Positions 9,792 to 55,455 of a stretch of 64,000 nucleotides of DNA are shown piece by piece. The stretch comes from an uncultured Pseudomonadota bacterium (GTDB taxonomy: Bacteria > Pseudomonadota > Alphaproteobacteria > Rs-D84): NCBI GenBank assembly GCA_937885575.1, contig CALABO010000016.1, forward strand, positions 4,392-68,391, in the 5' to 3' direction. Every line of letters starts with the position of its first letter. Position 1 is the stretch's first letter. Both the position numbers and the translations under genes were made by a program. The notes under the pieces are model-generated. The model made no database searches, was not told the DNA's origin, and saw only the letters and a list, made by a program, of their open reading frames with translations.

Positions 9792-9939
9792 TTGTTTTTC
9801 CTTTTTGGACTTTCATAATACCACCAACAAAAAAATAATTCAAGTGTTAGTGTTATCGCGGAAATTCACATAAGAATTCTATCTTGGGGAAAAGGGGCCG
9901 CGTATTTGGTAATATATATGGTGAACCAAGGGAGAAAAT

Positions 9940-10687
9940 TATGAAAGAAATTTTTAACGAATTCGAATATGAAAACACCATACCGCTTATTGGTGAACCG
10001 GCGCCGGAATTTGGCGCGAACACCACGAACGGATATATTCACTTTCCGCATGATTATCGCGGGCATTGGGTTGTGTTCTTTTCACATCCGGGCGATTTTA
10101 CGCCAGTTTGTACGACCGAATTTATGACTTTCCAATCAATGGCAGATGAATTTCGCGCGCTGAACACGGAACTGGTTGGGCTTTCGGTTGATTCGAATGC
10201 GTCGCACTTGGCGTGGATTCAAACAATTCGCAATGACATTGTTTTCCAAGGTTGGAAGAATATGGAAATAACTTTCCCGGTCGTGGCGGACGCGTCCGGC
10301 GATGTCGCACAAAAATACGGAATGTTGCACCCGGCGGTTGGCGACACAGATACTGTGCGGGCGGTCTTTGTAATTGACCCACGCGGGATTATTCGCACGA
10401 TTCTTTACTATCCGAAATCGGTCGGCCGCAATATCACGGAGATAAAGCGCATTGTTATCGCGCTGCAAACCTCAGACGCATTTCATGTCGCCACGCCCGC
10501 CGAATGGATTCCGGGCGAAGATGTTATCGTTCCCGCGCCGGGCAAAATTTCCGATATTAGGCGCGCCGGCGATCGCGATTGGTTTTTGAAATTCAAATCG
10601 ATAAGTCCGGAAATGATTCTAAATAAAATCACGAATAGAAAACTTATCGATAACGGCAAAAAACGGCAAAAATCAAAAAAGAAATAA
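9940..10687 (+). CDS. 1-Cys peroxiredoxin (Prx6 family), about 249 aa
   Basis: HPGDFTPVCTTEF peroxidatic-Cys motif. GGGAG RBS before the ATG at 9940; the track ORF extends to 9884. Confidence 0.8.
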
Positions 10688-27100: not shown

Positions 27101-30100
27101 TCGCATGCGTTCCACCAACCGGCAAATGTGTAGCCATCGCGGCTCATGATGTCTTCGCCAGGTAAATCGACACTGCCATTCAGCCATCTTGCCTGCCATG
27201 TCTGGTTGTTTTGCGCAGTAGTACCGATACTCTGACCTGCACCTGTAATGTAACGGTTTATGCCAATTACTGGATCAATCTCTGCACCAGTGGTGTCATA
27301 AAAACCATCAAACACAAAATCAACATTATCCGATAATTGTCCACCATACATGTCATGCCAATTAAACATTGCGCCATTACCATTAAGTGTCACCGTGGCA
27401 TATGTACTTGGCGTCCCAGATTCCAACGGATAATCATTCGGTGTCATCATGTATGTTCGGTTATAATCGCGGTAAACGCCATGATTGAACCACGTATAGA
27501 GTGTCGATGGATTCGCCAATGTTCCATTATCATTATAAAGATTCGAATTCAGCGCGATAGTATATCTGTTGTCACGGCATTCGGTTCCAACAAGGTCATA
27601 ACCGTTGTTACAGATTATGTCATTAGGACAAATTGGTAAACTTTGTTGACCTTGTGGCAAACATGTTGCACCAGGGCGATTGTATTTTATGCCCCATTGT
27701 GGATAATCCGAATGGTTTGGTGCGCAAGATTGCATGCCAACTGGCAATGGGCTTGGGCAACCCGAATCTTGGCAATCATATTCGCAGTTGCCATAACATT
27801 GTTCCGCACCAATTGCATGTGGGTTATCGGTGAAACCGTCTGGGCATGGATAGCATTTGTTACCGTCCCAGTATTCGCCCTGCTCGCATTGACTCCAATC
27901 CGGTTCCCATACTTGGTTATTATCAGTTAACACTGTGGGGTCTGGCAATCTCCATTGCCCGTTACTCACATAGCCCATCTGGACATCATTATACTTATAT
28001 CCTGCAAAAACATACCCTGAACGTCTTGGCAATTGTGAACCGGATAATCTTGTAACATTGAACGGCCCATTTGCAGTATATCCCCATCCATTATCATATT
28101 TTTCATACAAAATTTCTATCCCGGGTTCTGTTGCATCCGTTTGAGCCAAAGTCACATAATACACATTTCCATTATTCCAATCCGGGGTAAAGTCTTCATT
28201 GGCGTAAACATCACTCCATGTTGCCGTATATTCGGTATCACGCGCGGTGAATGTTGTGTTGTGGTTGCCCATCCAGCTAGTAAATGTATAACCCGCGTTT
28301 GAACATGCCGATGTCGGTGGAACCCGAACAGTGCCGCCATTCTGAACAGATTGGGTGTAATTCGGTAACGGATCTTCACCCGCGCCGCACCTGAATGTGA
28401 TTGTAAATGGACCCGTTGGACGGCCACACCGTGCATACCACGTATGGTTATTATCCGTATAATTGGGTTCCTGTTCTACACGGCCATCTGGACGAATCAC
28501 CCTATCACCACCACTTAATGCATCATAGTAGCCCTTGAATTCATATCCCGCGTTCGGTGTTGGCAGTTCATCATCGGTTAACGTCAAATTCGGATCAAAT
28601 GTTCCGGTTGCGGCCCGATTCCAACCAACATTGTATTTTTCATACAATTTTGTTGGTGTGTTATTGGATGGTTGACAGTTATTTCTGTCTGACACTAATT
28701 TTACTTCGTATATCACATCAGACCAATGTGCATACACAGTCATATCATTGTTCACCAAAGAACTTGAATCCACTTGGTTGCCCCCCATGGGTAAATCATA
28801 CCATCCATCAAATACAAAACCCGGGCGTGTTGGCACTGGTAAATCATTCCCAGACGAACTTATCGTCCCCAGTGTCCGCGATTGCCACCGGGCGTGCCAT
28901 GTGGCATCATCGGTATATCCCGTGCCAGCGGCTATACCACTTCCGTTAATATAACCATCGACATCTATATAACGTGGTGAACCATTCACAGATTTCCAGA
29001 AACCTTGGTAATCAAATAGAACATTCGCGTCCATGCTGCCCATGTACGTTTGACCATTCCAAATCAGTGATGCACCTTGACCATTAAGGTTAAATGTCAC
29101 GATTGCATAATTTAGCGGATTTTCGCTAAGCGGGTTCTGGTTCGCCCTCATTTCACCCGTATAATTGGAATACAAATACACCCCACGGTTATGCCAGGTA
29201 TATAAAACTTCTGGATCACTGCTCACCCCATGTATTATATGCGATTCTAATGTGATGGTGTGTTTTTCATCTTCCACACAACTCTGACCATCCTGGGCCG
29301 GAACCCAACCAAGGTCACAGTCCGTAATCATATACGGGCAATTCGGCGTCGGATTAGTGTTCGAAACACAGGTCTGTGTTCCATTGTTGTATTCTTTGCC
29401 ATTATTTTGAACACTTGGATCATTTGGATTGTATACACAATTCGCACCATGAACCGTTGGACATCCATTGGTCAAACAGATTGAACAAATCTTATAACAC
29501 TGATTCACGTTCGTCGCATTCGCATCAGCTAAAGGATACGCGCCACCTGTTGCATCACTGCAACTTTTGCAAACGCCATTATCCCAGTACTGACCGGCCG
29601 CACACGGTCCCCACTGAGCATCCCAGGTTTCATTTGCTGATATACTTGCCGGCAATGCCCAATTTGCACCACTAAAGTTTCCTCTCTGTGCCTGGGTTGT
29701 GCTATCCAACCATCCGTTAAAGTTAGACCCTTGTTTGGTTGGCAAAGAATCACCCGGTATAGATGTAATCTGTGTCGTTAACCCGGCATTCTTGTACCAC
29801 CCTAGGTCAACCGCGTACCATAATTCTTGATATTCGTTTGACGGGAACATTCCGCCGTTCTCGTTCAAATCCACATGATATACCGCCTTGGTATCCGGGA
29901 CAAAAACTTCATCAAAACAATGATTCCATGCAAAATATGAACCGGCATCAAGAAGAATTTCAGGATGTGTGGATCCCTTCCATTGATTGAATGCAACCCC
30001 AGAACACACCGTTGCCGCCGGGGCGGTTAAGTTAGCATCCCCCATATGCACCGTATAAGTATATATGTCGCCACCATTTGCACTGCATCTGAATTTGATG

Positions 30101-33100
30101 GTAAATGTGCCTGGATTATCAATATACTGTGCATACCATTTTTGGTTATTATCAGTAATGGTTGTGGATGGCAGTGGTTGATAACCATCTGAACTCACAT
30201 AACCGTCTGCCTGAATCATTTGTTGCCCGCCACTCCGTCTGTTAAAGTATCCTTTAAATACTTTGCATGTTTCTGATGGGGATGGTAATTCATCAGGATC
30301 CAAGTTCAGAGAAGATGTAAATCTGTTATCGGTCCTGGACCAACCAATTGTATATTTTTCAAACAGTTTGCTGACAAAGTTTGAACCTTCTATACCATTA
30401 TTACTATCCAATGTTACATAGTATGTATTCCATTCGCAAGTGTTGTTTTCCCAATGCTGGTATTCTGGGCAAATTGGGTCTTGTGTCGGATCCACATTAC
30501 ATGTTTGTGGAGTTATCGTGGCATCTGTCATTGGATTAAGACAGGCATTCGGATCATACTCTGGGACATATCCGGTTTGGGCCGCCGGATTACCTTCAAG
30601 ATACCAACATGTAGCACCCGCCGGATACTGTGGTGTTGGACACTGTGCCGGATTTGCCGGATAACCAGCCCACGTACAAGGCACCGGGCAAGACGGACGA
30701 CATTTACCAAGGGATGGGACATATATTTGACCCGCCTCGCATTGACCATAACTTGCCGTGAAAATCGGAGTAATGTTACAATAATTCCATGAATTAATCA
30801 TATAGTTCGAAGTTCCGGGATAATATACCTGGTTATTGCCATTGAATGTCCAACCATTGAATAACTGATCGTTTGATTGACAAGTTATTGTCGTTCCGTT
30901 GGATTCCACATAATATGGTTCGCCGTATGTTGCCTGGGTTCCGGAAAGTGTCCCAGGGGCGGTACTGGAATCGCATCTGTAATAAACATCATACTCTGTC
31001 GCGTTGCAACTAACGTTATTCAACACGCTTGCATCACCGATTGAACCATTGACGGTGAATATACCTCCGTTAGTGGCGCTGTTGTCATGTGTATAACAAG
31101 TGTAATTGTTATTATTACAGCCGGTACACGCTTCGCACTTAAGGGTATATATACATTCTGTTCCATTGCTATTGAGTGCGCCACTTACAAAAGTTGCGTG
31201 CGCATTGTTTGGTAATGTTCTTGCCGGGCATAGTTCAGATGCATTTGGCACGCAAACACCATTTTCCAAGTTATACCCGCTCTCACATCCCCACCATGCA
31301 TAGTAATCCTTGTCACCACAATCCGTGTTGCTTATTACAGGATTTTGCGTACACCCGGCGGTCAATTCCGGATTCGTGCACCATCCATTGAATACCTTGT
31401 GCGAACCGGCTTGCGGCGTTATCGAACAATTGATAGCGAACGCATTACCAAAGGTATAACTTGTCGTTGAACACCCACTGTATATCGCATTACCATTATG
31501 ATATGTGATGCTATAAGTACCAGGTGTCCAATGAGCATACAAATTCGTTGTTGCGCCCGTTGGTGTATACGGCATATTGGCATTTCCGGCCGATACCCCA
31601 TTGTACATATCTGTCCACCAACCGTTAAATGTATAACATTGACGTTGGGCATCAGGTAATGTTATTGAACCATCCTGCCACTGGGCGTGCCAAACAGTTG
31701 AATTACTCTGATTTTGTTGCGCCGCGATGTTACCATTGGTGCTAATATAACCAGTATCAAATATATATTGGCTTCCGCCATATACCGAAGGATAAAAACC
31801 TTGGAAATCGAACGTCGCCGTTAATGTGGCCGTAGAACTAGAATAACCATTCCAGATAACATTACCGCCATTTCCGTTTAGGATTACATCCGCCGATTTT
31901 TCAGGTACGGCATACAACGACTGCTCATCATTCATCAGATACACATAACCATTATCCAAATACGCCCCGCCATTTGGCCCATATTTTGTATAAAGGACTT
32001 CTGGCGAACTGGCGTGACCATTGAAACCATCAATATGACTATTCAAAGTTATCATATAATTGTTCGGAACGCACGCGGTGTTATTACCATTTGGTGTATA
32101 ACCAGGCAAACAATGAAGAACCGTTATCGGGCAATTTTGTTCATAATTTGGCTGACATGTGCCCGTTCCTGGATAATACAAATTACCATTCATGTTCGAA
32201 TTATTTCCAAATTCGCAATAATTGACCCCTTCGGTTTGTGGGCAAACCGGGGTGCAAATCGAACATTGCCTGTAACATTGATATATGCTTGTTGCATTGG
32301 CTTCCCCAAGAGGAAAATCCCCATTCGTTGCCGTGTTACACGTTACACAGACCCCGTTGTTCCAATATTCATTAGGGTTACACTGGCTCCATATCGCACA
32401 CCAATCTTCATCGTTTTGAATCAGTGTTGCAGGTGACACCGACCATATTCCACCGATGTTACGCACACGCGCATCGCCCGCAAGATTGTTGTACCCAACA
32501 AAAGTCCACCCGCTACGTGTTGGCAATTGTTGCGTGGTAAGTTCCGTGATCGGATTTGAAAGGGTTCCGCCAACATTTGTTCTGTACCAGTTAACACCAT
32601 ATTTTTCCCATAATTCTTGAACACCAGAATTACCAAATGTGCCTGTTTGGGTTGAATCGTCGCAAGAATATGCATGCAAATTTACATGATACACGTTGCC
32701 GTCATTCCAATCTGCGATAAATGTTTCACCATGAGTCTGTTCCCACGGATATTGATATGTAGAACTCTGCGCATTAAGTGTGGTGGGGTGATTACCAGTT
32801 GTCGTAGCTTTCCACCGGCTATACGAATACCCAGGGTTGTTCGTGCAAGCCGAATTTGATGGAACAGTTATATTTTCACCATAATGCACGGTTTGTGAAT
32901 CTACTATCGGATTTCCGCCCTCTTCACAGATGAACTTGATAGTGTATGTTTGGTTCGAATCCGGAATACAGTCATTGGCATCGTTATTCCAGATATATCC
33001 AGTGGTACAATTTGGTGTGTAACGACAAGTGCTCGCGGTTATCAGATCGCAATTTTCCGTCTTACGACACTTTGTAATAGATTCCGTAGGTTCGTAGTAC

Positions 33101-36100
33101 CCGCCTTGTGAATTTGACGTAGTATCATAATTACAACTGACCACTAGATTTGAATAATTGGTGCCATTGGGACAAGCCGCACTGTTAGAAGGCACGCCAT
33201 TGGATTGTCCTGGGTAAGTGCAATTCACAGAACATATTGGCTTGCAATCTTGGGGAGTAACACATGAGTTGCTGACAAGAATGTATCCATCATCACAAGA
33301 ATTAACCGTCCAATGTGCGTAAAGGGTTGTATCGTTATAGGCGATATAATCCGTTTCTATACGTGTTCCGGTTTCTCCTGGTTGTGTCCACCAACCGTCA
33401 AATATATATCCTTCACGGGTCGGATCAGATGGGAAGTCATTCCACATTAATGTACCACTATTACCATTCCATTGGGCGTACCATGTGTAATCCGCTGGCA
33501 CCCCATCGTAATTTTTACCGGCGGCTATACCTTGGTTCGTGATGAACCATTGGTTATTGGTTTGTTTGATATATCGATAACCCGGGTCCTCCGAATCATA
33601 GTTTGCGTAAAAACCAAGAAGAGTAAAGTAAGCATTTTCTATCTCACTTGTTGTTACAGGATTAGAGCAATAAGTGTCATTATCACGATCGCAATGATTA
33701 AATGTTACGGTATAGTATTTATTTGGCAAAGATGTCAACGGATTGGTGGTTTCGGTCATTTCGTCTTCACGTTCATAATCGCGATATACACCCGTATCAT
33801 GTATCGTATACAGTTGATTTGAATATTCGCCGTGTGGACCGTTTTGCCCAACCGTGAAATTTTTGCTAAGGATTATTTCATATTGATTCTCAGCGGTACA
33901 TGTCGCGGTACATTCTGTGTTATATGTTCCCGTGCAGTGGAACTGCGGATTTGTATATCCCGTTTTACATTTCACATCTGGGGTGCATTCGTTATTTGTA
34001 ACAACCGTTGCATCGCACGACAATACACCGGTGCCCGAACTACACTGACATTGTTCCCAATGCGCATCCAGGGTCGCCGTTGTATCCCGATAATGTTCGT
34101 AATATTCTTCTAAATAGGCATAATATGTATTGGTCGTTGCATCATAGTACCGTGTAAACGTGTTTGTTCCCCCATCCGCAACGTCCCACCGCGCAAGTCT
34201 GTTTCCGGTCTTGGTATATATCGCGCCCTTGGTGGTGAAGCTTTGATCAAAGGTCAGCGATACCGGTTCATTTGTATTCGGTTGCCCGCCATTTGGTCTG
34301 TATACAAGTGGCAGGTTGCCATCTTCTTCGCAAACAGCACCATTTTGATGATAGTTTGTATCGCACCCCCACCACGCATAATAAGTTTTGTTGCCATAGT
34401 CCGTGGAACTTATGGTTTGGGATGAATCACATGTCGTATTTGATGCATCCGCGCCAGTGCACCAACCCCGGAACACGGCATGGGAACCAGCCTGCGCGCT
34501 CAACGTGCACTCAATGGTTGCGGTCGTTCCGTATTGGTAATTGTCCGGGGTGCAATTGGTGGTATCAACATTAAAGTGCAACGTCCTTGCCGTGTCATCG
34601 TATGTGATATCGTATTCCGTTGCGGTACAGAACGTGCCGGACAATGTTCCACTGGTTGGACCAGTCATGGTAAATGTTTGCGCACCATTGTGATTATAAC
34701 AACCCGGTTCATTATCGACACATAATGCACACACAATTGTGTATTCACACAGATCATTTTCAAAGGTCACAGATGTTATTTGTGCGTGCGGATTGGGGTT
34801 TGTCGGCAATTGCGCCTGGCACAAACCGGACCCAAGGACACATTCGGTCCCTTGGGGGATATAACCATTTGCCGTGTCACATTCATACAGTGCGGTAAAG
34901 GTTGGGTCAGATGAATCGAACGTTGTATATGTCCATGACAGAATTACCCCACCCGTGTAACCAACATAATGGGTGCCTGTATTATTCAATTCCCATTTTG
35001 GTTGACCGTTTTCAAGTGCAAGCACATAACCAGTATTTGGATTACACTCTGCGATTTTTTGTGCCCCACTGTATGCGACTTTGTACGATTGACCGTATGT
35101 TGCGGTATTTTCCATACTATAACCAGAAGTCGACGTTCCGTGATCGCCACAAACATATTTTACACTGTCCCAAGTTTGCGATGTGCAGGTGCTTCCGTTC
35201 CATGTTGTTCCGTTATCGCAATATTGCGGGTACAGGGTACGGTTCGTAATTTGATTTGCCGGGGTCATTCCAGACATAATGTCTGTAGCATTAGTAGAAT
35301 CCAATCCCAGCAGATATTCAACATACCTGGTACCACCGCTCGGTGTATCATAATAACCCTTGAACAACGGGTCGGCGCTGGCGTTGGCACTTGGCTCTGG
35401 CGCAGCATCAGTCGGATAGATTATGAATGTATAGTTTGGTTCATTGCCCGTTCCGGTGTATTGACCCGGCCCCATAATATGACTCCAGATTTTACCGGAA
35501 CTGTTGCTAAGGTAATACGAGGAACTCACATAAGCAGCATTGCGAATACCAACAATGTGACGTGTACCCGCCGCCGTTGTGGGGCTGTCTTTCTTCATAA
35601 ATGTTACCTGTGACGACATCGGCTTAAACGCCATCGCCCCAGAACCGGTCAGCAATTTCGGACAATACGCAACATCGGCGGCGTTTTCACCGCAAACGTC
35701 AAGTTCCGGATTCGTCGCGCGATTCCGCCAATTTCCATAGAATTCTATTTGATTGTGGTTGTTTTCCACAATATCCGCCACACTGAAATCGCCATATGAT
35801 AAATTCGCGGATCGGCATTCCACATCGCTGGTCCCGTTGTCACCGTTACATACCCGGTAACACTGGTCCGCGCCCCAGTTATAGCCCGCGATACTGGTCC
35901 AGCCGCCACCTAACTGTGAACAAGGCACACATGCGTTTGCATTCGGATCCCAGTAATCACCATTCGGACACACCACGCAATCATCTTTGTTTTCGTTCAA
36001 GTGATAACGCTGATCCGTGCATTCCCATTTCGCATAGACATTTTTATCAGCACACGGGGCGGCGTTTGATAATTCTAGTGGTAAATCACAAGTTTCCAAA

Positions 36101-39100
36101 TTGGAATCTGTACACCACATTACAACCTCGCCGATATATTCATTATTCGCATTTTTAAGCCGCGGCACACCACTTATCGATGTGTCTGGGCTGGCATTAC
36201 ATGTATAAGAATCTGGCATACTGGTACTCTGATTCGATGGCATTTCCAGTGTGTTTCCGGCGGGCGTGATACTATTGTTGGTTGTCGGCATTTTAAGATA
36301 TGTTATGTTGTATGTGTTTGCCGCCCCCCAAATCGCAGTAAAGGTCTTGTTTTCTGTATAGGCCCACTCAAATTCCCCCGCATCCCCCGCAAGATGGGTG
36401 TCGGTTGAATTGGAAACCGCCCACCATCTGAATTGAAGATTACCATAATTGGTGCATCCTTCTGGCTGTGCCGGAACAATTCGGGCGCCAGCATATATAC
36501 CTGTTACGGGATTTGGCGATATAGACGGTGTCCCCCCACCATCACCGCAGGAATACGTCAGGGTATAGGTCGGATCGTCAGTATAAATCGGCCACAAGTT
36601 GCGGGAATACTGCGACCTTGTATCTGGGCTCATATTATTTTGGGCTGGGTTCAGATTTTTTGCAAACTGAATTATACCATTTGCATTATCTGCCGTTAAA
36701 TTCCTTGCACTGACTAATTCTGTTGCATCTGTTTCTGGATAGCCGTATCCAGCAAAGGTTTGGTGTTCGCGCGACATGGCCACGGGCGCCGTTTCCGCTG
36801 GATATGTAATAAATGTATAACGGTATGTTCCAAGTTCTGTTGTGATTTCTGGACCTTGTTGACCGACGCCCACAACCTGGCTCCAGGCAAAACCATCGGC
36901 AAGCGACAGACTGGTGCCACCGGCCCGATTTCCGATTATATAACGCGATTCGTTTTCATCTTGGGCGGTGTTGTTAAACCTTACCGCCGCCGCCATGGGT
37001 TTCTGGGGACCAATACTCGGGTTACTTGAAGCCAACAGCCCAAGCGGACATTTCGTGGCACCAGTGGCAGAACGACAAGTATAAATATTTTGCCGTTCAT
37101 TACCATAGAATGAAATCTGACGACCGGTTCCCCCATTTGTCGTAACAAATTGTTCAAAACCGTGCCCAGATGGTGTAGTAATCGCGGCACATTCCGTGAT
37201 GTCGTCATTCGTATCTGTGCCACAATTACGATAACACTGATCAATGCTCCATGTATACCCTTCCTTGCTGGTCCAATTGGGCCCTAAGATATCCGCACAT
37301 GTTTTACATGAATTGGTTCCAGGATCATAAAATTGACCCGCGTCACACATTTCGCAATTACCTGTTTGCGGATTAAGATGATATAAATCATCGCATTCAT
37401 ATTGTGCATAGAGTGTGACGTTGTCCACCGGCGCCCATGTATCATGGCCATAATCCGTCACGCTACCGTTAACATTAAATATCTCATTACCCGTTCCATC
37501 AACCGCGGTATTATATCCAACGAAGTGTGCATTTGTTTTTGTTGGAATTCTACCCACAACACTTGGGGTTATTTGGTCACCGCCGCACTCTGTGCCACCA
37601 TACCAACCCGTCACACCAGAAACCTTGGAAAAACGACCATTATTTCCACCGTTTGTTGGTGAATTCTGTTCACCGTTCGTCGTATCATCGAAACTTACAC
37701 TGCGGCATGCAACGGACCATTGTGCGGTACAGGTGATGTTTTCGGATACTGTTACCTGACAAGATTGGTTTGTCCCGCACGAATATACTACGGTGTTTTC
37801 ATCATCAACACATGTCCATCCGGCGAAATCATGACCGGCCCATGTTGCCGTTGACGGTAATGTGATAGTGCCCGTTCCCCAATGTGCAACCCATGTTCTT
37901 TGATCGTTGGTATTATTCTCATCGTAAGTTTTTCCGGCGGCTATACCATCACTGGTGATATACCCCTTGCCATCATATGGGTCTATATATTTTTCGGGGT
38001 TTAATGTAATGTTTTGATAATACCCCATAAAGTCAAGATTCTCATCAATGTTTGCATAATTGTTAGCTCCATTGTAACCATATATTGTACCATTGTAAGT
38101 AAACGATGCACCAGTACCATCATGTGTCGAATCGGGATAAATGGTTATATTGATAGTCTTTTGTGGTGGTGTTAGGGGGTTGGCGTTGGGTTCGTGATCC
38201 GGCAACATTTTTAATGTTCTTGCCGAATCAAGATATACACCAATGCTTTTCCTGGTATAAAGATAGTCCGAAGGATTGCCATCGGTTCCACCATTTTGAT
38301 CCAATATAATCACAAAATCTGTCTGACCCCAGTTTGCGGTAAAGTAGCAATTGTTACTGTCGTATGTCCAGGTGCCGAACGTTGGATCATTTGTGTTATA
38401 TGGTCCCGAATTAGCCCCGGCACATGTAAATGTCCAGTTTTGGAATGTCCATGCACCAAACCCGCCATTTGGTTTACAATTGTTGTCCAAGAAATCTTGA
38501 ACCGTAACATTACCGCCATTAAACGGATCAAATTGACCGGCAACGTTATAGGTTTGACCGTATGTAGCACTGGAATCCGTATAAACATCGGCACCCGGTT
38601 TGATGTCGCCGCAACGATATTCAACCCTGTATGTTTTTAAATGCCACATACTCTTGTCCAAAATAAATTCTATTTCCGTCAATGGTGTGGTCGTGATATA
38701 TTGCCAATCGGCGGAAGACAATGTTTCGTTCGGCCCATATTCACCATTCGGATTGGTTGAATTACCACTATAATCTTGTAAATTCCACACATAATCATTG
38801 TCTAACTCATACCCAGTAAATGCGCATGGCACATTGTGATTACCCGTTCCAACAGATTTAACAAGGTACGCGGCACCATAAGTTGCGTCATCATTGAATG
38901 TATGGGTGTCTGGTTCACCATCAACAGGTGAAACACAGGTATATTTTACATCGATTTTGTCACCAACACAATCACCATTGGCATTTGGAGCATAACCATC
39001 AACACAAGTATACTGTGCATACAATACTGTGTTACCATTTATCGTCCAATCAGATCCACTGTTATTACCAGTCGTTAAATTACCGCTGGCATTAAAAATT

Positions 39101-40731
39101 TGTCTATTCGGTGTTGGGGTTTCATAGTAATACCCAGTAAATGTTGCATGTGCTTTCCATGGCAGATGTCCTATGACATTTACTTGATTCGCACCACTTC
39201 CTATTTCTATTTTGTCGCTACACTTACTATCTGAATACCATGCTGTGTTGTTATATTTTTTATAGAAAGACGTATGTGTACCAGGCGTGGAAGCCGGATA
39301 TCCGCTTGGGTGCCCACCATTAGTCTCATCATCAAAACTAACTTCATAGCAGTTATCTTCAAAAACAGGTTTAAATGTTTGATGGCCACATCCCCATGTA
39401 AGTTCATCATGTTCGGGATCATTATGATTATATACAATTCCCCCAGACCCGAGTGTCCAACCAATAAAGGTTTGTCCATTCTGACCCTGACAACTAAAAT
39501 CGGCAATAATGTAATTACCGTAAGATTCTGGATGATTCGTGTCTGTGATTACATTGGCACCATCATCGCAATCGTACATAGCGTTCCAAACTTTCGGTTC
39601 ACATGCGCCGCCAACAAAAGTATAACATTGCTCATCCTTGCAACCATCACAATTCCATTGACACCAGTGTGCTTCTGTAAGATCGTTATCTGGGGCTAAT
39701 ATTTCTATGTTATTGTTGTCGTAACAATGTCCCTGATTATCCTCGTATTCTGTCCCATATATAGGAACGATTGGTGAATAAAACCCTGTCACACCTTCGG
39801 CACATTCGTCTGTACTATTGTGTCTTTGCGTACACGTTTCTGAGCAACTCTTGGTGCATGTATGCTGGTTGCCATATCCACCAGGGCTGGTAAAGCCTTC
39901 GGCACAAGGTATACACTCATCTGTTTGGCTATTATACCAATAATTCTGGGCACACCCGGCATTTTCATAACGTGCATAAAGGGTGATGGTATTACCACTA
40001 ATTCCACTAATATTCGTTGCATTGTTATAATTTAATTTACCGTACATATTATTATGGTAGGGTCCTATGCGAATGCTACCGCCCGTTTGGCTATCAGAAT
40101 ACCCAAGGAATGTGTATCCTTCCCGGGTTGGTGCCGTCGGCGTTTGAAACACCGGATAAAACACCGCATAATTTCTAGGACTATTTGGATTGTTAAGGCA
40201 ATCCGCACATTCGGTGGTTTTTTGGGTGCTCCACACCGTACCAAATCCAATGTAAAACGTACCCAATGAGGTATTATTATGGTCTACGAAATTAACCGTT
40301 TTCCAATTTGCGGAACACGTAGTATCTTTACCACAATCAAACACTTCTGCACAGTAATTTCCAATATTACTGCATGTAAGGCCGTTAACTTTAACCAATG
40401 AATTATGTGTTTCATCACCAAATCGGTAAATAAACGTCGTAGAATTGGAGGGGATACCGTATGTGCCACCATTTTGGAAGCTGGAATTCATGTCTGTACA
40501 GGTACCAGAGCACGCACCGTAACATAAATCTCCACTAAAGTTATAGTTGCCCATACTGTAGGGATAACTTGGAAAATCCTCGGCACATTTATTACAATCC
40601 TCTTCTGTCCTGCCGAGACCGTAGTAGTTATCCATCCAACAAAATCCTTCTGCCCATACACTGCCGATTTGGGCAGTCGCAAGCGTCGCAAAAAAGCCCA
40701 GAAAACCAAGGAATCTAGCGAATTTCTTCAT
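21151..40731 (-). CDS. Giant secreted repeat protein (6526 aa) with a Sec signal peptide, many Listeria-Bacteroides/InlB-B-repeat-like modules and eukaryote-like ephrin-receptor/furin-like cysteine-rich repeats; putative surface/host-interaction protein
   Basis: Uninterrupted 19,581-nt ORF with an AGGGAGAAAATATG RBS. N-terminal signal MKKFARFLGFLGFFATLATAQIGSVWA. More than 20 modules ending GY.F.GW...(T/N).LYA.W (e.g. TREGYIFDGWW...TTLYAHWT). More than 15 paired CxxC units such as CEMCDAGQFYDPGTNSCKTCADI and CPAGTYGPNGLECESCPEGYTSPAGS. About 8 tandem C.C(T).GTG...C modules in the C-terminal third. Composition is strongly biased (G, T, N, Y, C, W). Confidence 0.85.
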   Translation of the reverse strand: MKKFARFLGFLGFFATLATAQIGSVWAEGFCWMDNYYGLGRTEEDCNKCAEDFPSYPYSMGNYNFSGDLCYGACSGTCTDMNSSFQNGGTYGIPSNSTTFIYRFGDETHNSLVKVNGLTCSNIGNYCAEVFDCGKDTTCSANWKTVNFVDHNNTSLGTFYIGFGTVWSTQKTTECADCLNNPNSPRNYAVFYPVFQTPTAPTREGYTFLGYSDSQTGGSIRIGPYHNNMYGKLNYNNATNISGISGNTITLYARYENAGCAQNYWYNSQTDECIPCAEGFTSPGGYGNQHTCTKSCSETCTQRHNSTDECAEGVTGFYSPIVPIYGTEYEDNQGHCYDNNNIEILAPDNDLTEAHWCQWNCDGCKDEQCYTFVGGACEPKVWNAMYDCDDGANVITDTNHPESYGNYIIADFSCQGQNGQTFIGWTLGSGGIVYNHNDPEHDELTWGCGHQTFKPVFEDNCYEVSFDDETNGGHPSGYPASTPGTHTSFYKKYNNTAWYSDSKCSDKIEIGSGANQVNVIGHLPWKAHATFTGYYYETPTPNRQIFNASGNLTTGNNSGSDWTINGNTVLYAQYTCVDGYAPNANGDCVGDKIDVKYTCVSPVDGEPDTHTFNDDATYGAAYLVKSVGTGNHNVPCAFTGYELDNDYVWNLQDYSGNSTNPNGEYGPNETLSSADWQYITTTPLTEIEFILDKSMWHLKTYRVEYRCGDIKPGADVYTDSSATYGQTYNVAGQFDPFNGGNVTVQDFLDNNCKPNGGFGAWTFQNWTFTCAGANSGPYNTNDPTFGTWTYDSNNCYFTANWGQTDFVIILDQNGGTDGNPSDYLYTRKSIGVYLDSARTLKMLPDHEPNANPLTPPQKTINITIYPDSTHDGTGASFTYNGTIYGYNGANNYANIDENLDFMGYYQNITLNPEKYIDPYDGKGYITSDGIAAGKTYDENNTNDQRTWVAHWGTGTITLPSTATWAGHDFAGWTCVDDENTVVYSCGTNQSCQVTVSENITCTAQWSVACRSVSFDDTTNGEQNSPTNGGNNGRFSKVSGVTGWYGGTECGGDQITPSVVGRIPTKTNAHFVGYNTAVDGTGNEIFNVNGSVTDYGHDTWAPVDNVTLYAQYECDDLYHLNPQTGNCEMCDAGQFYDPGTNSCKTCADILGPNWTSKEGYTWSIDQCYRNCGTDTNDDITECAAITTPSGHGFEQFVTTNGGTGRQISFYGNERQNIYTCRSATGATKCPLGLLASSNPSIGPQKPMAAAVRFNNTAQDENESRYIIGNRAGGTSLSLADGFAWSQVVGVGQQGPEITTELGTYRYTFITYPAETAPVAMSREHQTFAGYGYPETDATELVSARNLTADNANGIIQFAKNLNPAQNNMSPDTRSQYSRNLWPIYTDDPTYTLTYSCGDGGGTPSISPNPVTGIYAGARIVPAQPEGCTNYGNLQFRWWAVSNSTDTHLAGDAGEFEWAYTENKTFTAIWGAANTYNITYLKMPTTNNSITPAGNTLEMPSNQSTSMPDSYTCNASPDTSISGVPRLKNANNEYIGEVVMWCTDSNLETCDLPLELSNAAPCADKNVYAKWECTDQRYHLNENKDDCVVCPNGDYWDPNANACVPCSQLGGGWTSIAGYNWGADQCYRVCNGDNGTSDVECRSANLSYGDFSVADIVENNHNQIEFYGNWRNRATNPELDVCGENAADVAYCPKLLTGSGAMAFKPMSSQVTFMKKDSPTTAAGTRHIVGIRNAAYVSSSYYLSNSSGKIWSHIMGPGQYTGTGNEPNYTFIIYPTDAAPEPSANASADPLFKGYYDTPSGGTRYVEYLLGLDSTNATDIMSGMTPANQITNRTLYPQYCDNGTTWNGSTCTSQTWDSVKYVCGDHGTSTSGYSMENTATYGQSYKVAYSGAQKIAECNPNTGYVLALENGQPKWELNNTGTHYVGYTGGVILSWTYTTFDSSDPTFTALYECDTANGYIPQGTECVLGSGLCQAQLPTNPNPHAQITSVTFENDLCEYTIVCALCVDNEPGCYNHNGAQTFTMTGPTSGTLSGTFCTATEYDITYDDTARTLHFNVDTTNCTPDNYQYGTTATIECTLSAQAGSHAVFRGWCTGADASNTTCDSSQTISSTDYGNKTYYAWWGCDTNYHQNGAVCEEDGNLPLVYRPNGGQPNTNEPVSLTFDQSFTTKGAIYTKTGNRLARWDVADGGTNTFTRYYDATTNTYYAYLEEYYEHYRDTTATLDAHWEQCQCSSGTGVLSCDATVVTNNECTPDVKCKTGYTNPQFHCTGTYNTECTATCTAENQYEIILSKNFTVGQNGPHGEYSNQLYTIHDTGVYRDYEREDEMTETTNPLTSLPNKYYTVTFNHCDRDNDTYCSNPVTTSEIENAYFTLLGFYANYDSEDPGYRYIKQTNNQWFITNQGIAAGKNYDGVPADYTWYAQWNGNSGTLMWNDFPSDPTREGYIFDGWWTQPGETGTRIETDYIAYNDTTLYAHWTVNSCDDGYILVSNSCVTPQDCKPICSVNCTYPGQSNGVPSNSAACPNGTNYSNLVVSCNYDTTSNSQGGYYEPTESITKCRKTENCDLITASTCRYTPNCTTGYIWNNDANDCIPDSNQTYTIKFICEEGGNPIVDSQTVHYGENITVPSNSACTNNPGYSYSRWKATTTGNHPTTLNAQSSTYQYPWEQTHGETFIADWNDGNVYHVNLHAYSCDDSTQTGTFGNSGVQELWEKYGVNWYRTNVGGTLSNPITELTTQQLPTRSGWTFVGYNNLAGDARVRNIGGIWSVSPATLIQNDEDWCAIWSQCNPNEYWNNGVCVTCNTATNGDFPLGEANATSIYQCYRQCSICTPVCPQTEGVNYCEFGNNSNMNGNLYYPGTGTCQPNYEQNCPITVLHCLPGYTPNGNNTACVPNNYMITLNSHIDGFNGHASSPEVLYTKYGPNGGAYLDNGYVYLMNDEQSLYAVPEKSADVILNGNGGNVIWNGYSSSTATLTATFDFQGFYPSVYGGSQYIFDTGYISTNGNIAAQQNQSNSTVWHAQWQDGSITLPDAQRQCYTFNGWWTDMYNGVSAGNANMPYTPTGATTNLYAHWTPGTYSITYHNGNAIYSGCSTTSYTFGNAFAINCSITPQAGSHKVFNGWCTNPELTAGCTQNPVISNTDCGDKDYYAWWGCESGYNLENGVCVPNASELCPARTLPNNAHATFVSGALNSNGTECIYTLKCEACTGCNNNNYTCYTHDNSATNGGIFTVNGSIGDASVLNNVSCNATEYDVYYRCDSSTAPGTLSGTQATYGEPYYVESNGTTITCQSNDQLFNGWTFNGNNQVYYPGTSNYMINSWNYCNITPIFTASYGQCEAGQIYVPSLGKCRPSCPVPCTWAGYPANPAQCPTPQYPAGATCWYLEGNPAAQTGYVPEYDPNACLNPMTDATITPQTCNVDPTQDPICPEYQHWENNTCEWNTYYVTLDSNNGIEGSNFVSKLFEKYTIGWSRTDNRFTSSLNLDPDELPSPSETCKVFKGYFNRRSGGQQMIQADGYVSSDGYQPLPSTTITDNNQKWYAQYIDNPGTFTIKFRCSANGGDIYTYTVHMGDANLTAPAATVCSGVAFNQWKGSTHPEILLDAGSYFAWNHCFDEVFVPDTKAVYHVDLNENGGMFPSNEYQELWYAVDLGWYKNAGLTTQITSIPGDSLPTKQGSNFNGWLDSTTQAQRGNFSGANWALPASISANETWDAQWGPCAAGQYWDNGVCKSCSDATGGAYPLADANATNVNQCYKICSICLTNGCPTVHGANCVYNPNDPSVQNNGKEYNNGTQTCVSNTNPTPNCPYMITDCDLGWVPAQDGQSCVEDEKHTITLESHIIHGVSSDPEVLYTWHNRGVYLYSNYTGEMRANQNPLSENPLNYAIVTFNLNGQGASLIWNGQTYMGSMDANVLFDYQGFWKSVNGSPRYIDVDGYINGSGIAAGTGYTDDATWHARWQSRTLGTISSSGNDLPVPTRPGFVFDGWYDLPMGGNQVDSSSLVNNDMTVYAHWSDVIYEVKLVSDRNNCQPSNNTPTKLYEKYNVGWNRAATGTFDPNLTLTDDELPTPNAGYEFKGYYDALSGGDRVIRPDGRVEQEPNYTDNNHTWYARCGRPTGPFTITFRCGAGEDPLPNYTQSVQNGGTVRVPPTSACSNAGYTFTSWMGNHNTTFTARDTEYTATWSDVYANEDFTPDWNNGNVYYVTLAQTDATEPGIEILYEKYDNGWGYTANGPFNVTRLSGSQLPRRSGYVFAGYKYNDVQMGYVSNGQWRLPDPTVLTDNNQVWEPDWSQCEQGEYWDGNKCYPCPDGFTDNPHAIGAEQCYGNCEYDCQDSGCPSPLPVGMQSCAPNHSDYPQWGIKYNRPGATCLPQGQQSLPICPNDIICNNGYDLVGTECRDNRYTIALNSNLYNDNGTLANPSTLYTWFNHGVYRDYNRTYMMTPNDYPLESGTPSTYATVTLNGNGAMFNWHDMYGGQLSDNVDFVFDGFYDTTGAEIDPVIGINRYITGAGQSIGTTAQNNQTWQARWLNGSVDLPGEDIMSRDGYTFAGWWNACDGGALVSMGNQTIAVSGDRTLCAHWSGKSYTVTYNCNSEDGQGGSATDNQLAYQNTSYTVRENFIPCSKPATETTRAHEFENWKFNLNSNTYWPGDSILWIFTDDNPTLNAHYKECSDGSYFDGSCKTCPTGYDHSNINATSPQHCYKTCNVEIPCTQPVSDCPNEEGVLTCVYPQLTSSVSGAQYYGSNECVHDVPSTQYCEPFTIMCKPGYTPDYYLSTDVGVQCTKLADHEITLDANCGGDVTPGQEKLYTTENTGVYLNPARTNQYLMTISDHPLSVDKLPNCVVTATFNHCDNDDPNCYGATITDRGVNLTFNGYYKTASGVTQYTDARSVGGQLKSYITQDGMDDGKGYTTDATWYAHWNASQVGTDKWPIDPTRDACGVTYNFVGWWTDATGGQQVQPGTPINNDVTWYAHWCEGCPANGIANGSCTVNSCVATINCNNDYTWDTNSCSCVLSPDPRFTLTYKPNGGTPTQPRTQSLRLNETFTTLGGDTFSKSGEVLCRWVSNATTYTFPDGVAELSTEYTYLNENDTTLLADWVACQCTSGTGVQGCSVSVVNNACVPTVTCMPGYVPNELPTCTGECNTNCNASCRQCEPGTYQDGNECKSCDNGFTSGVAATSCYGETITVDWDENGGNPIDQNGSCQFCVDGNGCTSPACESCGTHPANNLTLAAAPTHNNNAMQFLGWKLATGNDLYSAGTNVMCTYNNVGVYSGISTHKIKAQWNQCQCINPLNPHVAGCTPIVTNDTCAYINWCDTGYELDQPTAYTPAAVCNPITSNITYDCGDGTGMPVTATDTAEYDADYTVKNEGGANCQKTGFNFAGWRFNGDGQLHQAGDRITWNYTSDQTFTAEYTNIQCASDEILIGNDCVKCNCTIGTGATNTSCGSLSTISNTCEWTHPVACLTGFVNPAWNCTGTGNTSCIASCGICPANQVEVSGDCTDCRCTPDTTTGAVSCGTMSISDNMCNWGPATCGLGYGYPNIICEGSSNQSCTVKCQVCPAGTYGPNGLECESCPEGYTSPAGSTSIEDCYGNGNPYTITYQAAGGVNTATGVTDQPVIQNVTYNSGFVTKQGTIFSKTNSIITVWDTVSGGAYPELNHWYQYNTAGDTWLDAHWESCECTTGTGAESCGTLSTAGNTCNWTNPVCQDGYVSPNMQCTGTGNTNCTLTCGECQEGEVIVNGECIPCTCTTGNGAASCTPGATANNTCTAVGQCLVGYGNEDGNANVVCNDTNCVVSYNECGDGWVSNENCQCEICPANTYQSGNTCVPCQNGYTSPAGSSSADACVPGAHTIHYLSNNGTNETYNQGVYYGQSFTTEGGTRFTYTNHIMTHWNVESGSSSTFTNGTATLSGNYVYNDATDTTLSAQWAQCTCDADGCTTYATNSNECACNASEESCPDGYIYGGCECNGTNCAPICTLSQSNAIYNCGTGTGIPPVSELVGYGTPYTIKANATVYGCSRENSTFAGWEFDGDQQIHAAGDTVTWNYTTDKNFRAVYCNNCLPEDHCTLDIPNPGECVVTCHTGYEWNSTLQKCVAKTYPNENGITYKPNGGTPNQNYTQSVTYDAPFTTLDWSAEHYRKPRHIMTQWAVESGGVGTFDSGYANLGTEYTYKTDGATVLAADWTECAADKISLNNQCQQCNCTAGTGTTSCGTLSTDDDTCAWGPVSCQTGYVNPTLDCSDDTTSCTASCTQCGNKQVEVNGTCTDCECEINGDGVNSGCGFVSNNGNICNWNPTTCKLGYGYPELTCTDSNFNNDCTASCTICPAGQYGDDGLTCKDCPDGKTSLPGATSKKECFIDPNSCAQDEHIEHGECVSNTRACSIPNATSAARIWNPAIGTYGPCTVIECDEANGYHESGNACVRDTCTVAHGSAESEQVGPSSWECFVTKCDPGYEPSSDYKSCVECANRYVDGDPNKDVAVSSYVSECEIAACMYQGQKYALQNGECVSICETETDETGTKVWDERTNKCVRTCKPGYKMW

Positions 40732-41379: not shown

Positions 41380-41535
41380 TGCAAGGAAAAAGTGGGGAGT
41401 GGTAAGTGTTAGTGGGTAGTGTTAGTGGAAAGTCTCTAGAGGGGAACTTTGCGCGCTGGAATAACCACGTAATTACGGATTTATTCCAGAACCTAATAAC
41501 CACTTACACTAGCCGCTAACACTTTCCACTAAGGT
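41380..41535. repeat. MITE-like element of about 155 bp: inverted GTGTTAGTG/CCACTTACACTAA arms flanking a nested-palindromic core (ctctagaggggaactt...ctggaataaccacgtaattacggatttattccag)
   Basis: Left arm agtggtaagtgttagtgggtagtgttagtggaaag. Right arm (reverse complement) ccttagtggaaagtgttagcggctagtgtaagtgg. The core is about 70% identical to the core at 55381..55420. Confidence 0.6.
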
Positions 41536-42721
41536 ATTTCGTTTGTCTTGCGGATATTACGCAGGCCAAGATATGCGACATAAATAATATCGCAATAAGA
41601 TACTGCAACGCGCCATGTAAATTAAATGCGCCGATATACATCAAACACAGGCACCCCGCCCAACGACCAAAGAACAGAACAACATCACGCATAACCAGGT
41701 ATTCTATGCGGATATTTTTTGTAATGAACCGCGATTGTCCGATGTTCAAAATGTTCGTGCCACAGATCTGGTTCGTGGTGACGATGCCGACCGCATAGGC
41801 GAACGCGTAAAGCAATATACTGAAACGATTCACGCCGATTATCAAAGCAGCCGCCGAAAACGCCAATAACACAGAGCAAGATAGGACAATCCACCTAAAA
41901 TCCCGATTGGAACAAAAACGCCCAAAAGCCCATGATGCCACGATTGTACAGATTGCGAAAATCGTTGACCATATCCCAAGGTTCATGTCTGTATGAAATG
42001 CATCGACGATGTACATAACCACGACCGTTTCCAATATCCATGCGAAACTGCGCAACAATTCCGAAAGAAATATCTTACGCAATAACGGCGTTCCCCTTAG
42101 GTGATTATAAAAACCGATAAAATCTATTGGTTGGTGTTTTGGATTTCGGCACGGTGGCAATAAAAACAACATAAAAAATTCCATAATCGCCATAACCATA
42201 ATGGCCCAAGCGACACTTTGCAACGATGTTATGGTCAGCATCGTTCCCAATGTGATCGGAACCAAGATTTTGAAGATATGTCTTATCGCCTCTTTGGTGC
42301 CAACAAAAAATACCATCCTTTTGGCGCAAACACTTTCGATTGTGATGGCATGCATCGGTAAATTATAAAACCCTTCGAAAATACCATAAAGGATTCCCAA
42401 CACAACAAGCCACCTGGCCGCGTCCGCCCCAAGAACCGCAATCAGACCCATCAAAATAATCCGGGTGACAATGTTCATGCCGAAAAGAACCGTTTTGTTG
42501 CCGTTTTTGCACCAATTGGCCGTTATAACAAATGTTAAACATATCGCCAAAATCTCAAAAAAACGGTATGCCGATACGGAAACAATCTCATTGATTGTGT
42601 TGTGCATCAAAAAAGATACAATAAATGTCCCAAGAAACATGGTGGAAATGGTATGAAATACCGAAAAGCCGGTTATTATCCATTCATTCTTTGTTAATCG
42701 GTGGCAAAAATTCCCTCTCAT
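41516..42721 (-). CDS. MFS-type transporter (12 TM), 401 aa
   Basis: Twelve hydrophobic segments in a 6+6 arrangement; AT-rich. Confidence 0.55.
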   Translation of the reverse strand: MRGNFCHRLTKNEWIITGFSVFHTISTMFLGTFIVSFLMHNTINEIVSVSAYRFFEILAICLTFVITANWCKNGNKTVLFGMNIVTRIILMGLIAVLGADAARWLVVLGILYGIFEGFYNLPMHAITIESVCAKRMVFFVGTKEAIRHIFKILVPITLGTMLTITSLQSVAWAIMVMAIMEFFMLFLLPPCRNPKHQPIDFIGFYNHLRGTPLLRKIFLSELLRSFAWILETVVVMYIVDAFHTDMNLGIWSTIFAICTIVASWAFGRFCSNRDFRWIVLSCSVLLAFSAAALIIGVNRFSILLYAFAYAVGIVTTNQICGTNILNIGQSRFITKNIRIEYLVMRDVVLFFGRWAGCLCLMYIGAFNLHGALQYLIAILFMSHILACVISARQTKYLSGKC

Positions 42722-44086: not shown

Positions 44087-44116
44087 AAAATAACGGCGAT
44101 TGCCGTTATTTTTTAT
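44085..44116. terminator. Bidirectional rho-independent terminator (A6, taacggc-gatt-gccgtta, T8)
   Basis: Lies between the convergent helicase and ACP-like genes. Confidence 0.7.
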
Positions 44117-44670
44117 TTCTTTTTTTCCGCCCGCGCCCGAAGTGCCATTTGCGACCGGATTTGATCAAATAAATTTAATGCTTGCGCGACCGGCATTTTT
44201 AGTATTTCACCGACCGTAGTTTGCAACAAATCCGCCGGCACATTTTTGGTTGGTTTTGTTGCGACGGGCTTTTTTGCGGTTGTCTTCGAACCCGCATCTT
44301 TGGGTGTCGATTGCTTTTTTGTTGCGGCGGGCTTTTTTGCGGTTGTCTTCGAACCCGCAACTTTGGATACCGGCTGCTGCGTAGATTTCACGGGCGGAAG
44401 CCAATCAGGGTCGGCCTGCTTTTCTTCAATCAACCTAACCACATCGCCAACGGCCACTATGTTTTCCTGTTGATTGTCCGGGATACTTAGATTATATTCT
44501 TTTTCAAACTCCATCATTAATTCAACCGTATCAAGAGAATCCGCCCCAAGGTCGTTTGTAAACTGGGCAACCATTGTTACCTCAGCCGGGTCAACGCCAA
44601 GTTTTTCAACAACAATTGGAACGATTTGTCTAAGAATTGCTTGCTGTCCTTCTGATATTTGTTCTGTCAT
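44113..44670 (-). CDS. Acyl carrier protein fused to a C-terminal Lys/Ala/Thr-rich (histone-H1-like) tail (185 aa)
   Basis: N-terminal 85 aa are a canonical ACP ([16 protein letters not shown], phosphopantetheine Ser in DSL). The C-terminal 100 aa are low complexity, with a 21-aa tandem repeat [10 protein letters not shown](A/V)ATK... encoded by a 63-bp direct DNA repeat. Confidence 0.75.
44267..44392. repeat. Tandem direct repeat, 2 x about 63 bp, inside the ACP-tail coding region
   Basis: gggcttttttgcggttgtcttcgaacccgca(t/a)ctttgg... occurs twice in tandem. Confidence 0.7.
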
Positions 44671-55352: not shown

Positions 55353-55455
55353 TTAGTGTAAGTGGATAGTGGTTAGTAGATTCTGGAATTATTACGCAAT
55401 TACTGATTGATTCTAGATACTACTAACCACTTACACTAATCACTAACACTCTTAA
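55353..55455. repeat. Palindromic repeat element of about 100 bp (GTGTTAGTGTAAGTGG...core...CCACTTACACTAATCACTAACAC) between convergent genes
   Basis: Inverted arms of about 30 bp around the core ttctggaattattacgcaattactgattgattctagata. Same family as 41380..41535. Confidence 0.65.

Follow-up and report, generated by a model that had tools for sequence, protein, structure and literature searches.

The 64,000-nt stretch of DNA analyzed here (the window; contig CALABO010000016.1 of assembly GCA_937885575.1, positions 4,392 to 68,391, G+C content 44.6%) originates from a Candidatus Enterousia-like alphaproteobacterium of the order Rs-D84 and carries a dispersed family of elements in which arrays of short tandem units (hereafter arms) occur alone or face each other in inverted orientation around a variable cargo. 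The family is real and previously unnamed, and it is of a kind that is known but unexplained, i.e., the hairpins of STRR sequences (short tandemly repeated repetitive ones) and other heptamer arrays, together with stems of the intervening-sequence (IVS) type; it is not a classical miniature inverted-repeat transposable element (MITE), repetitive extragenic palindrome (REP), or small RNA (sRNA). We lean towards reading the elements as a family of short-unit hairpins, lineage-specific members of the STRR class, that punctuate transcripts at gene boundaries, for which a terminator or mRNA-stability role would be the most plausible function. The main value of the finding lies in the link between such arrays and the genes of S23p/IVSP (23S rRNA intervening-sequence proteins), a protein with a solved structure (PDB 2GSC). 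The genomes of Enterousia (order Rs-D84) measure 0.75–1.0 Mb, and these organisms are thought to be partner-dependent (PMC12306168).

Arm structure and copies in the window

In each arm, units of 6 and 7 nt (TTAGTG/GTTAGTG) alternate in tandem with a 13-nt period, usually 4–5 units per array, the Enterousia repeat being written as (GTTAGTGTTAGTG)n. Exchangeable cargo (a 34-nt core, GC hairpins, or terminators) lies between two such arrays that are inverted relative to each other. Tandem Repeats Finder independently reported the arms as tandem repeats with periods of 6, 7, and 13. The two strands of an arm differ in composition, one being rich in G/T and free of C, the other rich in C/A and free of G, and each of the three frames contains repeated TAG (on the complement, TAA). 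The original prediction had described inverted arms of approximately 30 bp built from AGTGG units; the inverted arms held up, but they are tandem 6/7-nt arrays and not a simple inverted repeat. Inverted arms measure ~25–45 nt and whole paired elements ~75–210 nt, which places them within the size range (< ~600 bp) and terminal-inverted-repeat layout of MITEs, and the predicted arm-arm stems have a median length of 21.5 bp (range 11–35).

A dispersed family with at least five copies in 64 kb had been proposed, and copies do lie where they had been reported, with motif counts in the window above those of shuffled sequences. AGTG-N2-3-AGTG was found 21 times (shuffle mean 3.5, maximum 9), TAGTGKWAGTG with at most one mismatch 10 times (1.3 in shuffles), GAGGGGAACTT three times (0.33), and arrays of at least three units six times (0.25). 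The GAGGGGAACTT motif had been taken for a shared palindrome; it is actually the 3′ half of a CCCCTC-loop-GAGGGG hairpin followed by AACTT and is not itself palindromic. Read at these positions, the window contains two full copies, each a nested palindrome, as well as two half copies and two fragments, as follows.

41391–41534: full copy 1, nested palindrome
41391–41433 (+): left arm of full copy 1, ~6 tandem units (AGTGGGG AGTGGTA AGTGTT AGTGGGT AGTGTT AGTGGAA AGT)
41434–41455 (+): cargo fragment CTCTAGAGGGGAACTTTGCGCG of full copy 1, a truncated CCCCTCT..AGAGGGGAACTTTG module
41456–41489 (no strand): 34-nt symmetric core of full copy 1, CTGGAAT-N9-AATT-N9-ATTCCAG
41490–41534 (+): right arm of full copy 1, CACTAA-type units
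55348–55450: full copy 2, nested palindrome
55348–55379 (+): left arm of full copy 2, where the stop codon of gene 54118..55350(+) is the first TAG (55348–55350)
55383–55416 (no strand): core of full copy 2, CTGGAATTATTACGCAATTACTGATTGATTCTAG, 34 nt, slightly degenerate, 81% identical to the core of copy 1
55420–55450 (+): right arm of full copy 2, abutting the stop codon (55452–55454) of the convergent gene 55452..56519(-)
14936–15024: half copy, cargo and right arm
14936–15001 (+): cargo of this half copy, AACCACACCC, then a GC hairpin (GCCCCGC..GCGAGGGC), then CCCCTCTCTAGAGGGGAACTTTA
15002–15024 (+): right-arm remnant TAATCACTAACACTCTCCACTAA, 57 nt 5′ of gene 15079..16107(+)
40847–40911: half copy, left arm and GC hairpin
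40847–40872 (+): solo left arm TTTTAGTGGGTAGTGTAAGTGTTAGT, 5′ of the start of a 6526-aa gene (21151..40731, minus strand)
40873–40911 (+): GC hairpin module CCCGCCTTCGC..GGCGAGGCAGGG, then one extra GTTAGTG unit
41137–41178 (+): armless isolated cargo module GACCACCCC-GGCCTTCGGCC-ACCCCTCCACAGGAGGGGAACTT (CCCCTCC..GGAGGGGAACTT module)
9841–9854 (+): two-unit fragment AAGTGTTAGTGTTA, newly located, between the divergent genes 7767..9509(-) (accD/A-like) and 9884..10687(+) (peroxiredoxin)

In the minimum free energy fold, the left arm of copy 1 (41391..41433) is paired to 41490–41534, and both full copies are predicted to fold strongly, at −62.1 kcal/mol (z −7.1) for copy 1 and −47.5 kcal/mol (z −10.2) for copy 2. 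All copies in the window are intergenic, as had been stated. Gene 41516..42721(-) has its stop codon within the right arm of copy 1, and the left arm of copy 2 begins with a unit that provides the TAG of gene 54118..55350(+). The CCCCTCT..AGAGGGGAACTTTG module is also present in the cargo of L035, L046, L072, and L076 (loci compared with the window are referred to by L numbers), and the armless module at 41137–41178 is followed by an intrinsic-terminator-like hairpin with a T-run at 41187–41219.

Distribution and position relative to genes

The lineage scan used the 24-nt arm pattern on one genome per species and recovered 74 loci in 26 assemblies, so that copies exist genome-wide and lineage-wide; 24 of the 26 assemblies are uncultured rumen/gut Alphaproteobacteria (Candidatus Enterousia, RUG, and RGIG labels), the closest being JAFRSV01 with ~88–94% identity to the window in coding DNA. 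The family had been said to be unlike any named one, and the searches agree: Rfam, at gathering as well as relaxed thresholds, matched only tRNAs and transfer-messenger RNA (tmRNA) in the window and 18 loci, and in a literature search the unit sequences matched nothing but unrelated primers and telomere controls, with no relevant context.

The window and the 74 loci, which were chosen for carrying arms, form the census set, in which 163 arrays of 3–19 units were counted (42 inverted pairs and 79 solo arms), with unit numbers peaking at 4–5 per array. As in STRR sequences, these are dispersed head-to-tail arrays, variable in number and mainly intergenic: 116 of the 121 elements (96%) lie between genes, though 87% of the DNA is coding, and they are enriched in convergent and depleted in divergent spacers. 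For 65 of 74 arms whose outer edge faces a stop codon, the distance between the two falls between −14 and +13 nt. Twenty genes use the TAG of the first unit as their stop codon, and TAG accounts for 69% of stops beside arms vs. 13% elsewhere. Recoding of stop codons was considered and dropped, as TAA, TAG, and TGA are all in use as stops.

The arms are also polarized. Solo arms entered by a gene show UUAGUG in the sense strand in 30 cases and CACUAA in 4, while among those located ≤ 70 nt 5′ of a start the orientation is CACUAA in 21 and UUAGUG in 2, and the same preference holds for paired arms ≤ 70 nt 5′ of a start (16 CACUAA vs. 2). A gene reads directly into a G/U-rich, C-free array, and a C/A-rich array precedes the start of the next gene; from this polarity it follows that the element has an inside and an outside, with cargo inside and genes abutting outside. 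The whole positional rule of STRR/heptamer arrays is thus reproduced, i.e., G-rich sense arrays after stops, antisense arrays before open reading frames (ORFs), depletion between divergent genes, and inverted pairs. In addition, a separate intrinsic terminator comes after 27 of 78 solo arms, in most cases at a distance of 0–11 nt, compared with 8 of 78 in the control on the outer side. The genes beside arms have housekeeping functions (amidase, LPG synthase, major facilitator superfamily transporter, Pif1-like helicase, acetyl-CoA carboxyltransferase, peroxiredoxin, trigger factor, DnaK, UDG, and acyl-CoA synthetase). Among the arm-flanked ORFs in ~620 kb, no transposase or REP-associated tyrosine transposase (RAYT, Y1/HUH) was found, and the only gene enclosed by arms encodes a PF05635 four-helix-bundle protein.

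Outside the Alphaproteobacteria, an isolated six-unit TTAGTG-type array was observed on the chromosome of Planctomycetota ZRK32 (L015, 7411–7446), a phylum unrelated to Enterousia. It lies immediately 5′ of a membrane transporter gene and reads CACUAAC..CUCAUG in the sense of that gene; the 8-kb locus contains no IVSP gene.

Cargo and change at orthologous sites

The commonest cargo is the fixed 34-nt symmetric core TCTGGAAT-N9-AATT-N9-ATTCCAGA, flanked by GTTAGTAG / CTACTAAC, the length of which is invariant in ~20 copies from other genomes. A second module (ACCACACCCC, then a GC hairpin, then CCCCTCT..AGAGGGGAACTTTG) occurs three times in the window, and the remaining cargo consists of several further GC hairpins, intrinsic terminators, and, at one locus, a gene. 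The cargo of L009, L010, L040, and L061 includes GC-rich palindromes of the types GTCATCCCGCG..CGCGGGATC and TGTCATTGCGAGG..GCAATCC, which we take to resemble hairpin repeats of many other Proteobacteria and Bacteroidota, a likeness suggesting that the intergenic mosaic draws on several repeat families.

Elements are kept at the same sites across species whose flanking sequences are 75–90% identical, and they differ in presence, cargo, and orientation. Three comparisons of filled and empty sites were available: L001 has a 90-nt insertion of arm plus cargo at window position 48444, L057 has an 80-nt insertion, and L061 differs from L026 in the same way. No clean target-site duplication was seen in any of the three, the junctions being an ambiguous AATAA, A-rich, or those of a composite insertion; with this result, and with no transposase among the arm-flanked genes, an identity as classical MITEs is not supported. 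The insertion in L057 (within 250–480) ends in a CACTAAC array and lies between the −10 box and the ATG of an Obg-like GTPase gene. The window counterpart of this gene (49134..) seems leaderless (TATAAT, 6 nt, and ATG within 49115–49136), and in L057 the insertion provides the gene with a CACUAA leader.

The same flanks enclose wholly different cargo in the window (14863–15002) and L018, and different cargo in L046/L052/L035 as well as at window position 55348 and L076, one of the only four loci that were returned by a metagenome scan for orthologues of gene 55452..56519. Cargo is inverted between species in L023 vs. L043 and in L046 vs. L035. A separate inversion relative to the flanks affects tRNA-Ser(cga) with its promoter and terminator (window 12916–13668 vs. 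L018 2083–2267, the closest genome), next to ~576 bp of AT-rich sequence (13092–13668) that is present in the window and absent from L018; no TTAGTG arms were found beside this inverted segment.

S23p/IVSP genes within inverted arrays

The cargo gene of L064 (477–842) belongs to PF05635 ("23S rRNA intervening-sequence protein") and is homologous to the pentameric XCC0516 of Xanthomonas campestris (PDB 2GSC, 5 chains). L064 (444–846) and its orthologues L079 and L085 have the order arm-ORF-arm with the stop codon of the ORF inside the 3′ arm, the stem/ORF arrangement of an IVS. In Enterousia, a sigma-70-like promoter can be read from the sequence 5′ of the 5′ arm, this arm ends 2 nt short of the ATG, and the 3′ arm supplies the final ~7 codons together with the stop (tail LTTNTNH*), a tail common to ~40 protein clusters at ≥ 63% identity. 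The gene occupies a fixed locus between rbfA and lepA and is missing from L034; a mobile IVSP cassette within Enterousia was rejected because of this fixed position.

All PF05635 (S23p/IVSP, four-helix-bundle) genes examined, from ~12 lineages of several phyla, were found within an inverted pair of arrays (L064 444–846, L079, L085, L088, L090, L091, L093, L094, L012, L095–L099, and L102), in which a G/T-rich array lies upstream of the gene and a C/A-rich one downstream, each made of ~4–5 tandem units of 6–8 nt. The bracketing units differ between hosts:

TTAGTGA: Alphaproteobacteria metagenome-assembled genome (MAG)
TAGTGC/TAGTGG: 'Rickettsiales' MAG
TTAGTGG: Prevotellaceae MAG
GTTGTAG: second Rs-D84 type
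AGTTACG: Paludibacter, between sdhA and sdhB
AGTAGGG: Nostoc edaphicum
TTAGCTT: Pseudanabaena
TTAGCTG: Calothrix
GAGGGCAG: Gemmatirosa
GGAGTCAG: N. punctiforme

In the short IVSP loci the bracketing arrays are essentially the sole arrays of at least 3.5 units, and the 'Rickettsiales' contig carries an additional solo array of its own unit type elsewhere. For X. campestris it was predicted beforehand that the S23p gene, located between accB and accC, would be bracketed by GGGAATC arrays, and this is the case: the upstream array reads GGGAATC GGGAGTG GAGAATC GGGAATC, and the downstream one is the reverse complement of GGGAATA GGGAGTC GAGAATG GGGAATG. The bracket is the genome's own dispersed array family in both Enterousia and Xanthomonas. 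In the literature searched, no paper was found that links such dispersed arrays to S23p. Several IVSP cassettes lie inside operons of linked genes, i.e., nrdB/nrdA (antisense), cas6/cas4, sdhA/sdhB, and accB/accC (L095, L096, L091, and L102).

Comparison with known repeat systems

The tandem 6/7-nt structure of the arms places the family with STRR sequences, the Xanthomonas GGGAATC arrays, and the stems of 23S rRNA IVS. The 7-bp STRR hairpins of cyanobacteria lie between genes and their function is not known (PMC2670836), and the same holds for the function of the GGGAATC arrays of Xanthomonas and the GGGGA(C/T)T arrays of Nostoc described by Rehm et al. (PMC4692102). The latter two lie G-rich in the sense strand ≤ 50 bp after a stop and antisense ≤ 50 bp before an ORF, most often consist of four units, form 70–75 inverted pairs per genome, and are depleted between divergent ORFs (PMC4692102). 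The elements described here agree with all of these in being dispersed, intergenic, tandem arrays of 6–8-nt units with a variable number (mode ~4), in forming hairpins through inverted pairs, and in their positional rule and depletion between divergent genes. They differ in the 6/7-nt alternation with its 13-nt period, the absence of G-tracts, stops in all frames of both strands, a flush placement to coding sequences, a conserved set of cargo, and a gut alphaproteobacterial host with a reduced genome.

The IVS of Coxiella consists of an S23p ORF in a 28-bp inverted-repeat stem that is cut by RNase III and contains variable tandem heptamers (PMC4990558). With the 23S rRNA IVS of Coxiella and Leptospira (PMC4990558) the family shares a PF05635 ORF in inverted repeats of ~28–35 bp, which are partly variable-number tandem heptamers, and the bracket of the Enterousia IVSP is built from the units of the dispersed arms. 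The copies described here lie outside rRNA, nearly all without an ORF, between protein or tRNA genes; no rRNA is present in the window or the scanned loci, and the location in 23S helix 25/45 that characterizes IVS was not found.

REPs and bacterial interspersed mosaic elements (BIMEs) are intergenic mosaics of palindromes at the 3′ ends of genes, solo or in inverted doublets, that form hairpins at mRNA 3′ ends; the REP unit, ~35 nt long and headed by a conserved GTAG, is imperfectly palindromic, and the RAYT is a Y1 HUH transposase. The suggested resemblance to REP/BIME holds for the modular build and the placement at gene ends, and fails for the palindromic unit with its GTAG head. As in the REP/BIME-RAYT systems of enterobacteria and the REP doublets forming hairpins (REPINs) of Pseudomonas, there are solo and inverted units and a single-copy gene, inherited vertically, that has the same repeat on either side, but the arms are non-palindromic tandem arrays and the flanked gene encodes a four-helix-bundle protein. 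The Neisseria intergenic mosaic elements (NIME) with dRS3, Correia elements, Rhizobium intergenic mosaic elements (RIMEs), and Rickettsia palindromic elements (RPEs) are recombination substrates of small or host-associated genomes; they likewise place short inverted repeats around variable intergenic cassettes, but share no sequence similarity with the family, which shows neither the TA duplication of Correia elements nor the insertion into coding frames of RPEs. DNA uptake sequences, Chi/KOPS, parS, CtrA/DnaA boxes, and integron attC sites were dropped as candidates, since the arrays are intergenic, are arranged as palindromes, and lack the defining spacing or gene content.

Proposed role and alternative explanations

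In the transcript, the two arrays would zip into a stem of 20–35 bp or more, and such a stem should tolerate unequal unit numbers because any register pairs. By analogy, it may mark the gene boundary as a hairpin that protects the 3′ end or can be cleaved by RNase III, and the stops in all frames would keep ribosomes off the stem or a neighboring terminator. At the DNA level, the orthologous comparisons suggest that the arrays slip, gaining or losing units, and serve as portable homology, which would allow cargo swaps, inversions, and gains or losses without target duplication. The presence of tens of copies flush with stops and starts in a genome of < 1 Mb suggests that they are part of how genes are delimited.

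Several points weigh against hairpins that punctuate transcripts. Transcription, cleavage, and 3′-end formation are all deduced from DNA sequence, and the RNase III step is proposed by likeness to rRNA intervening sequences. Twelve elements lie between divergent genes, where a 3′-end role would hardly be sensible, and the canonical paired copies carry no T-run (U-tract in the RNA) and hence are not themselves intrinsic terminators. In 20 canonical copies, paired cells across stem and core amounted to 76.8% vs. 79.4% in column shuffles, with no excess of compensatory changes; the sequence of unit and core is conserved, not the pairing. Among 10 copies in tandem context, the sense RNA was the steadier in 3 and the antisense RNA in 7 (p = 0.28), and with no stability bias towards the sense RNA, selection on RNA pairing is not demonstrated. 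Finally, because the census loci were selected for arms, an unbiased density can be taken from the window only.

The conservation of unit sequence rather than pairing points to recognition by a protein, for which the S23p/IVSP pentamer is a candidate, and the modal 4–5 units would fit such recognition as well. We tentatively propose, as a possibility, that S23p/IVSP pentamers (PF05635, Avd-like) are the cognate partners of dispersed STRR-type arrays of 6–8-nt units, as RAYTs are of REPs. Each subunit of the protein might contact one unit, so that ~five tandem units of RNA or single-stranded DNA would be bound, and the role of the protein might be either to maintain or propagate the arrays or to exploit them as signals for processing or termination. 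In that case, the Enterousia elements would be ORF-less derivatives of an IVS-like cassette, and two old puzzles would be joined, i.e., the function of STRR-type repeats and that of S23p/IVSP/Avd-like proteins.

It is unlikely, in our estimate, that the elements are miniature mobile elements (MITE-, REPIN-, or IVS-like) of a purely selfish nature, mobilized in trans by an unseen enzyme, tolerated only between genes, and devoid of host function. The presence/absence differences at orthologous sites, the defined outer termini, inverted arms and small size, and the occurrence of the same arms around one protein gene per genome, as in REP/RAYT, would all suit such elements, and absent covariation fits recent copying. 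The three comparisons without a clean target-site duplication, the lack of a transposase among arm-flanked genes, and the IVSP itself, which is not a known transposase and stays at the rbfA-lepA locus in many species, nevertheless argue against mobility of this kind. So does the fact that elements persist at shared positions in different species of a lineage whose genomes are reduced, and the strict flush placement at stops and by terminators suggests constraint.

The arrays might alternatively act at the level of DNA or of single strands as binding sites for a sequence-specific protein, be it the S23p/IVSP pentamer or one with a nucleoid or recombination function, and the hairpin potential would then be secondary. 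This appears quite improbable. Units and core half-sites (TCTGGAAT .. AATT .. ATTCCAGA, fixed 34 nt) conserved with no compensatory change, an RNA stability that lacks strand bias, modal 4–5 units that match a homopentamer (PDB 2GSC), and IVSP genes that, in Enterousia and Xanthomonas, are enclosed by the array type of their own genome speak for it. The polarity relative to ORFs, however, is easier to explain at the RNA level, the Enterousia relative L034 keeps arms though the IVSP is absent from the conserved locus, and in L093 the IVSP arms are of the GTTGTAG type while the sole other array-like stretch within 8.5 kb is TTAGTG-like.

A structured non-coding or cis-regulatory RNA family (sRNA or riboswitch-like) is largely refuted and carries very little probability: the predicted folds are strong and the modules conserved, but Rfam gave no match at either threshold, cargo is exchangeable and invertible, copies lie in either orientation to the flanking genes, and the absence of covariation makes a discrete structured sRNA unlikely. 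Least credible of all are G-quadruplexes (G4) or phase-variable simple-sequence repeats, as proposed for the GGGAATC arrays, which share the positional rule and the unit-number mode and were described as G4-forming in a paper that does not mention S23p (PMC4692102); TTAGTG/GTTAGTG units have no run of three G, so that a canonical G4 is impossible, the flanking genes are housekeeping and not contingency loci, and the arrays are located outside of coding frames and, for the most part, of promoters. The elements are a clear non-G-quadruplex member of the dispersed heptamer-type arrays, a class that has had no accepted function since the STRR were described, and because they follow the rule and unit mode of the GGGAATC arrays, G4 formation cannot be the general explanation.

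Other features of the window

Two more short dispersed modules, unrelated to the arms, lie at 40912–40992 and 41061–41131, 5′ of the giant gene, and match L013 (88%, 83 nt) and L013/L067 (73–81%, ~68 nt). The giant gene itself (21151–40731, minus strand) is one ORF of 6526 aa with many diverged internal repeats (families D1, D3–D5, D8, and D10–D20), probably encoding a giant surface protein; its N-terminal 600 aa had zero Pfam matches. Exact-protein look-ups for two genes of the window found no record. A 63-nt tandem duplication (two copies, 89% identical) is located at 44254–44378, in or beside ORF 44113..44670(-), and a permuted two-piece tmRNA of the alpha type is encoded at 48759–49115(-), with 149 bits against RF01849 and 121 bits against RF04321.

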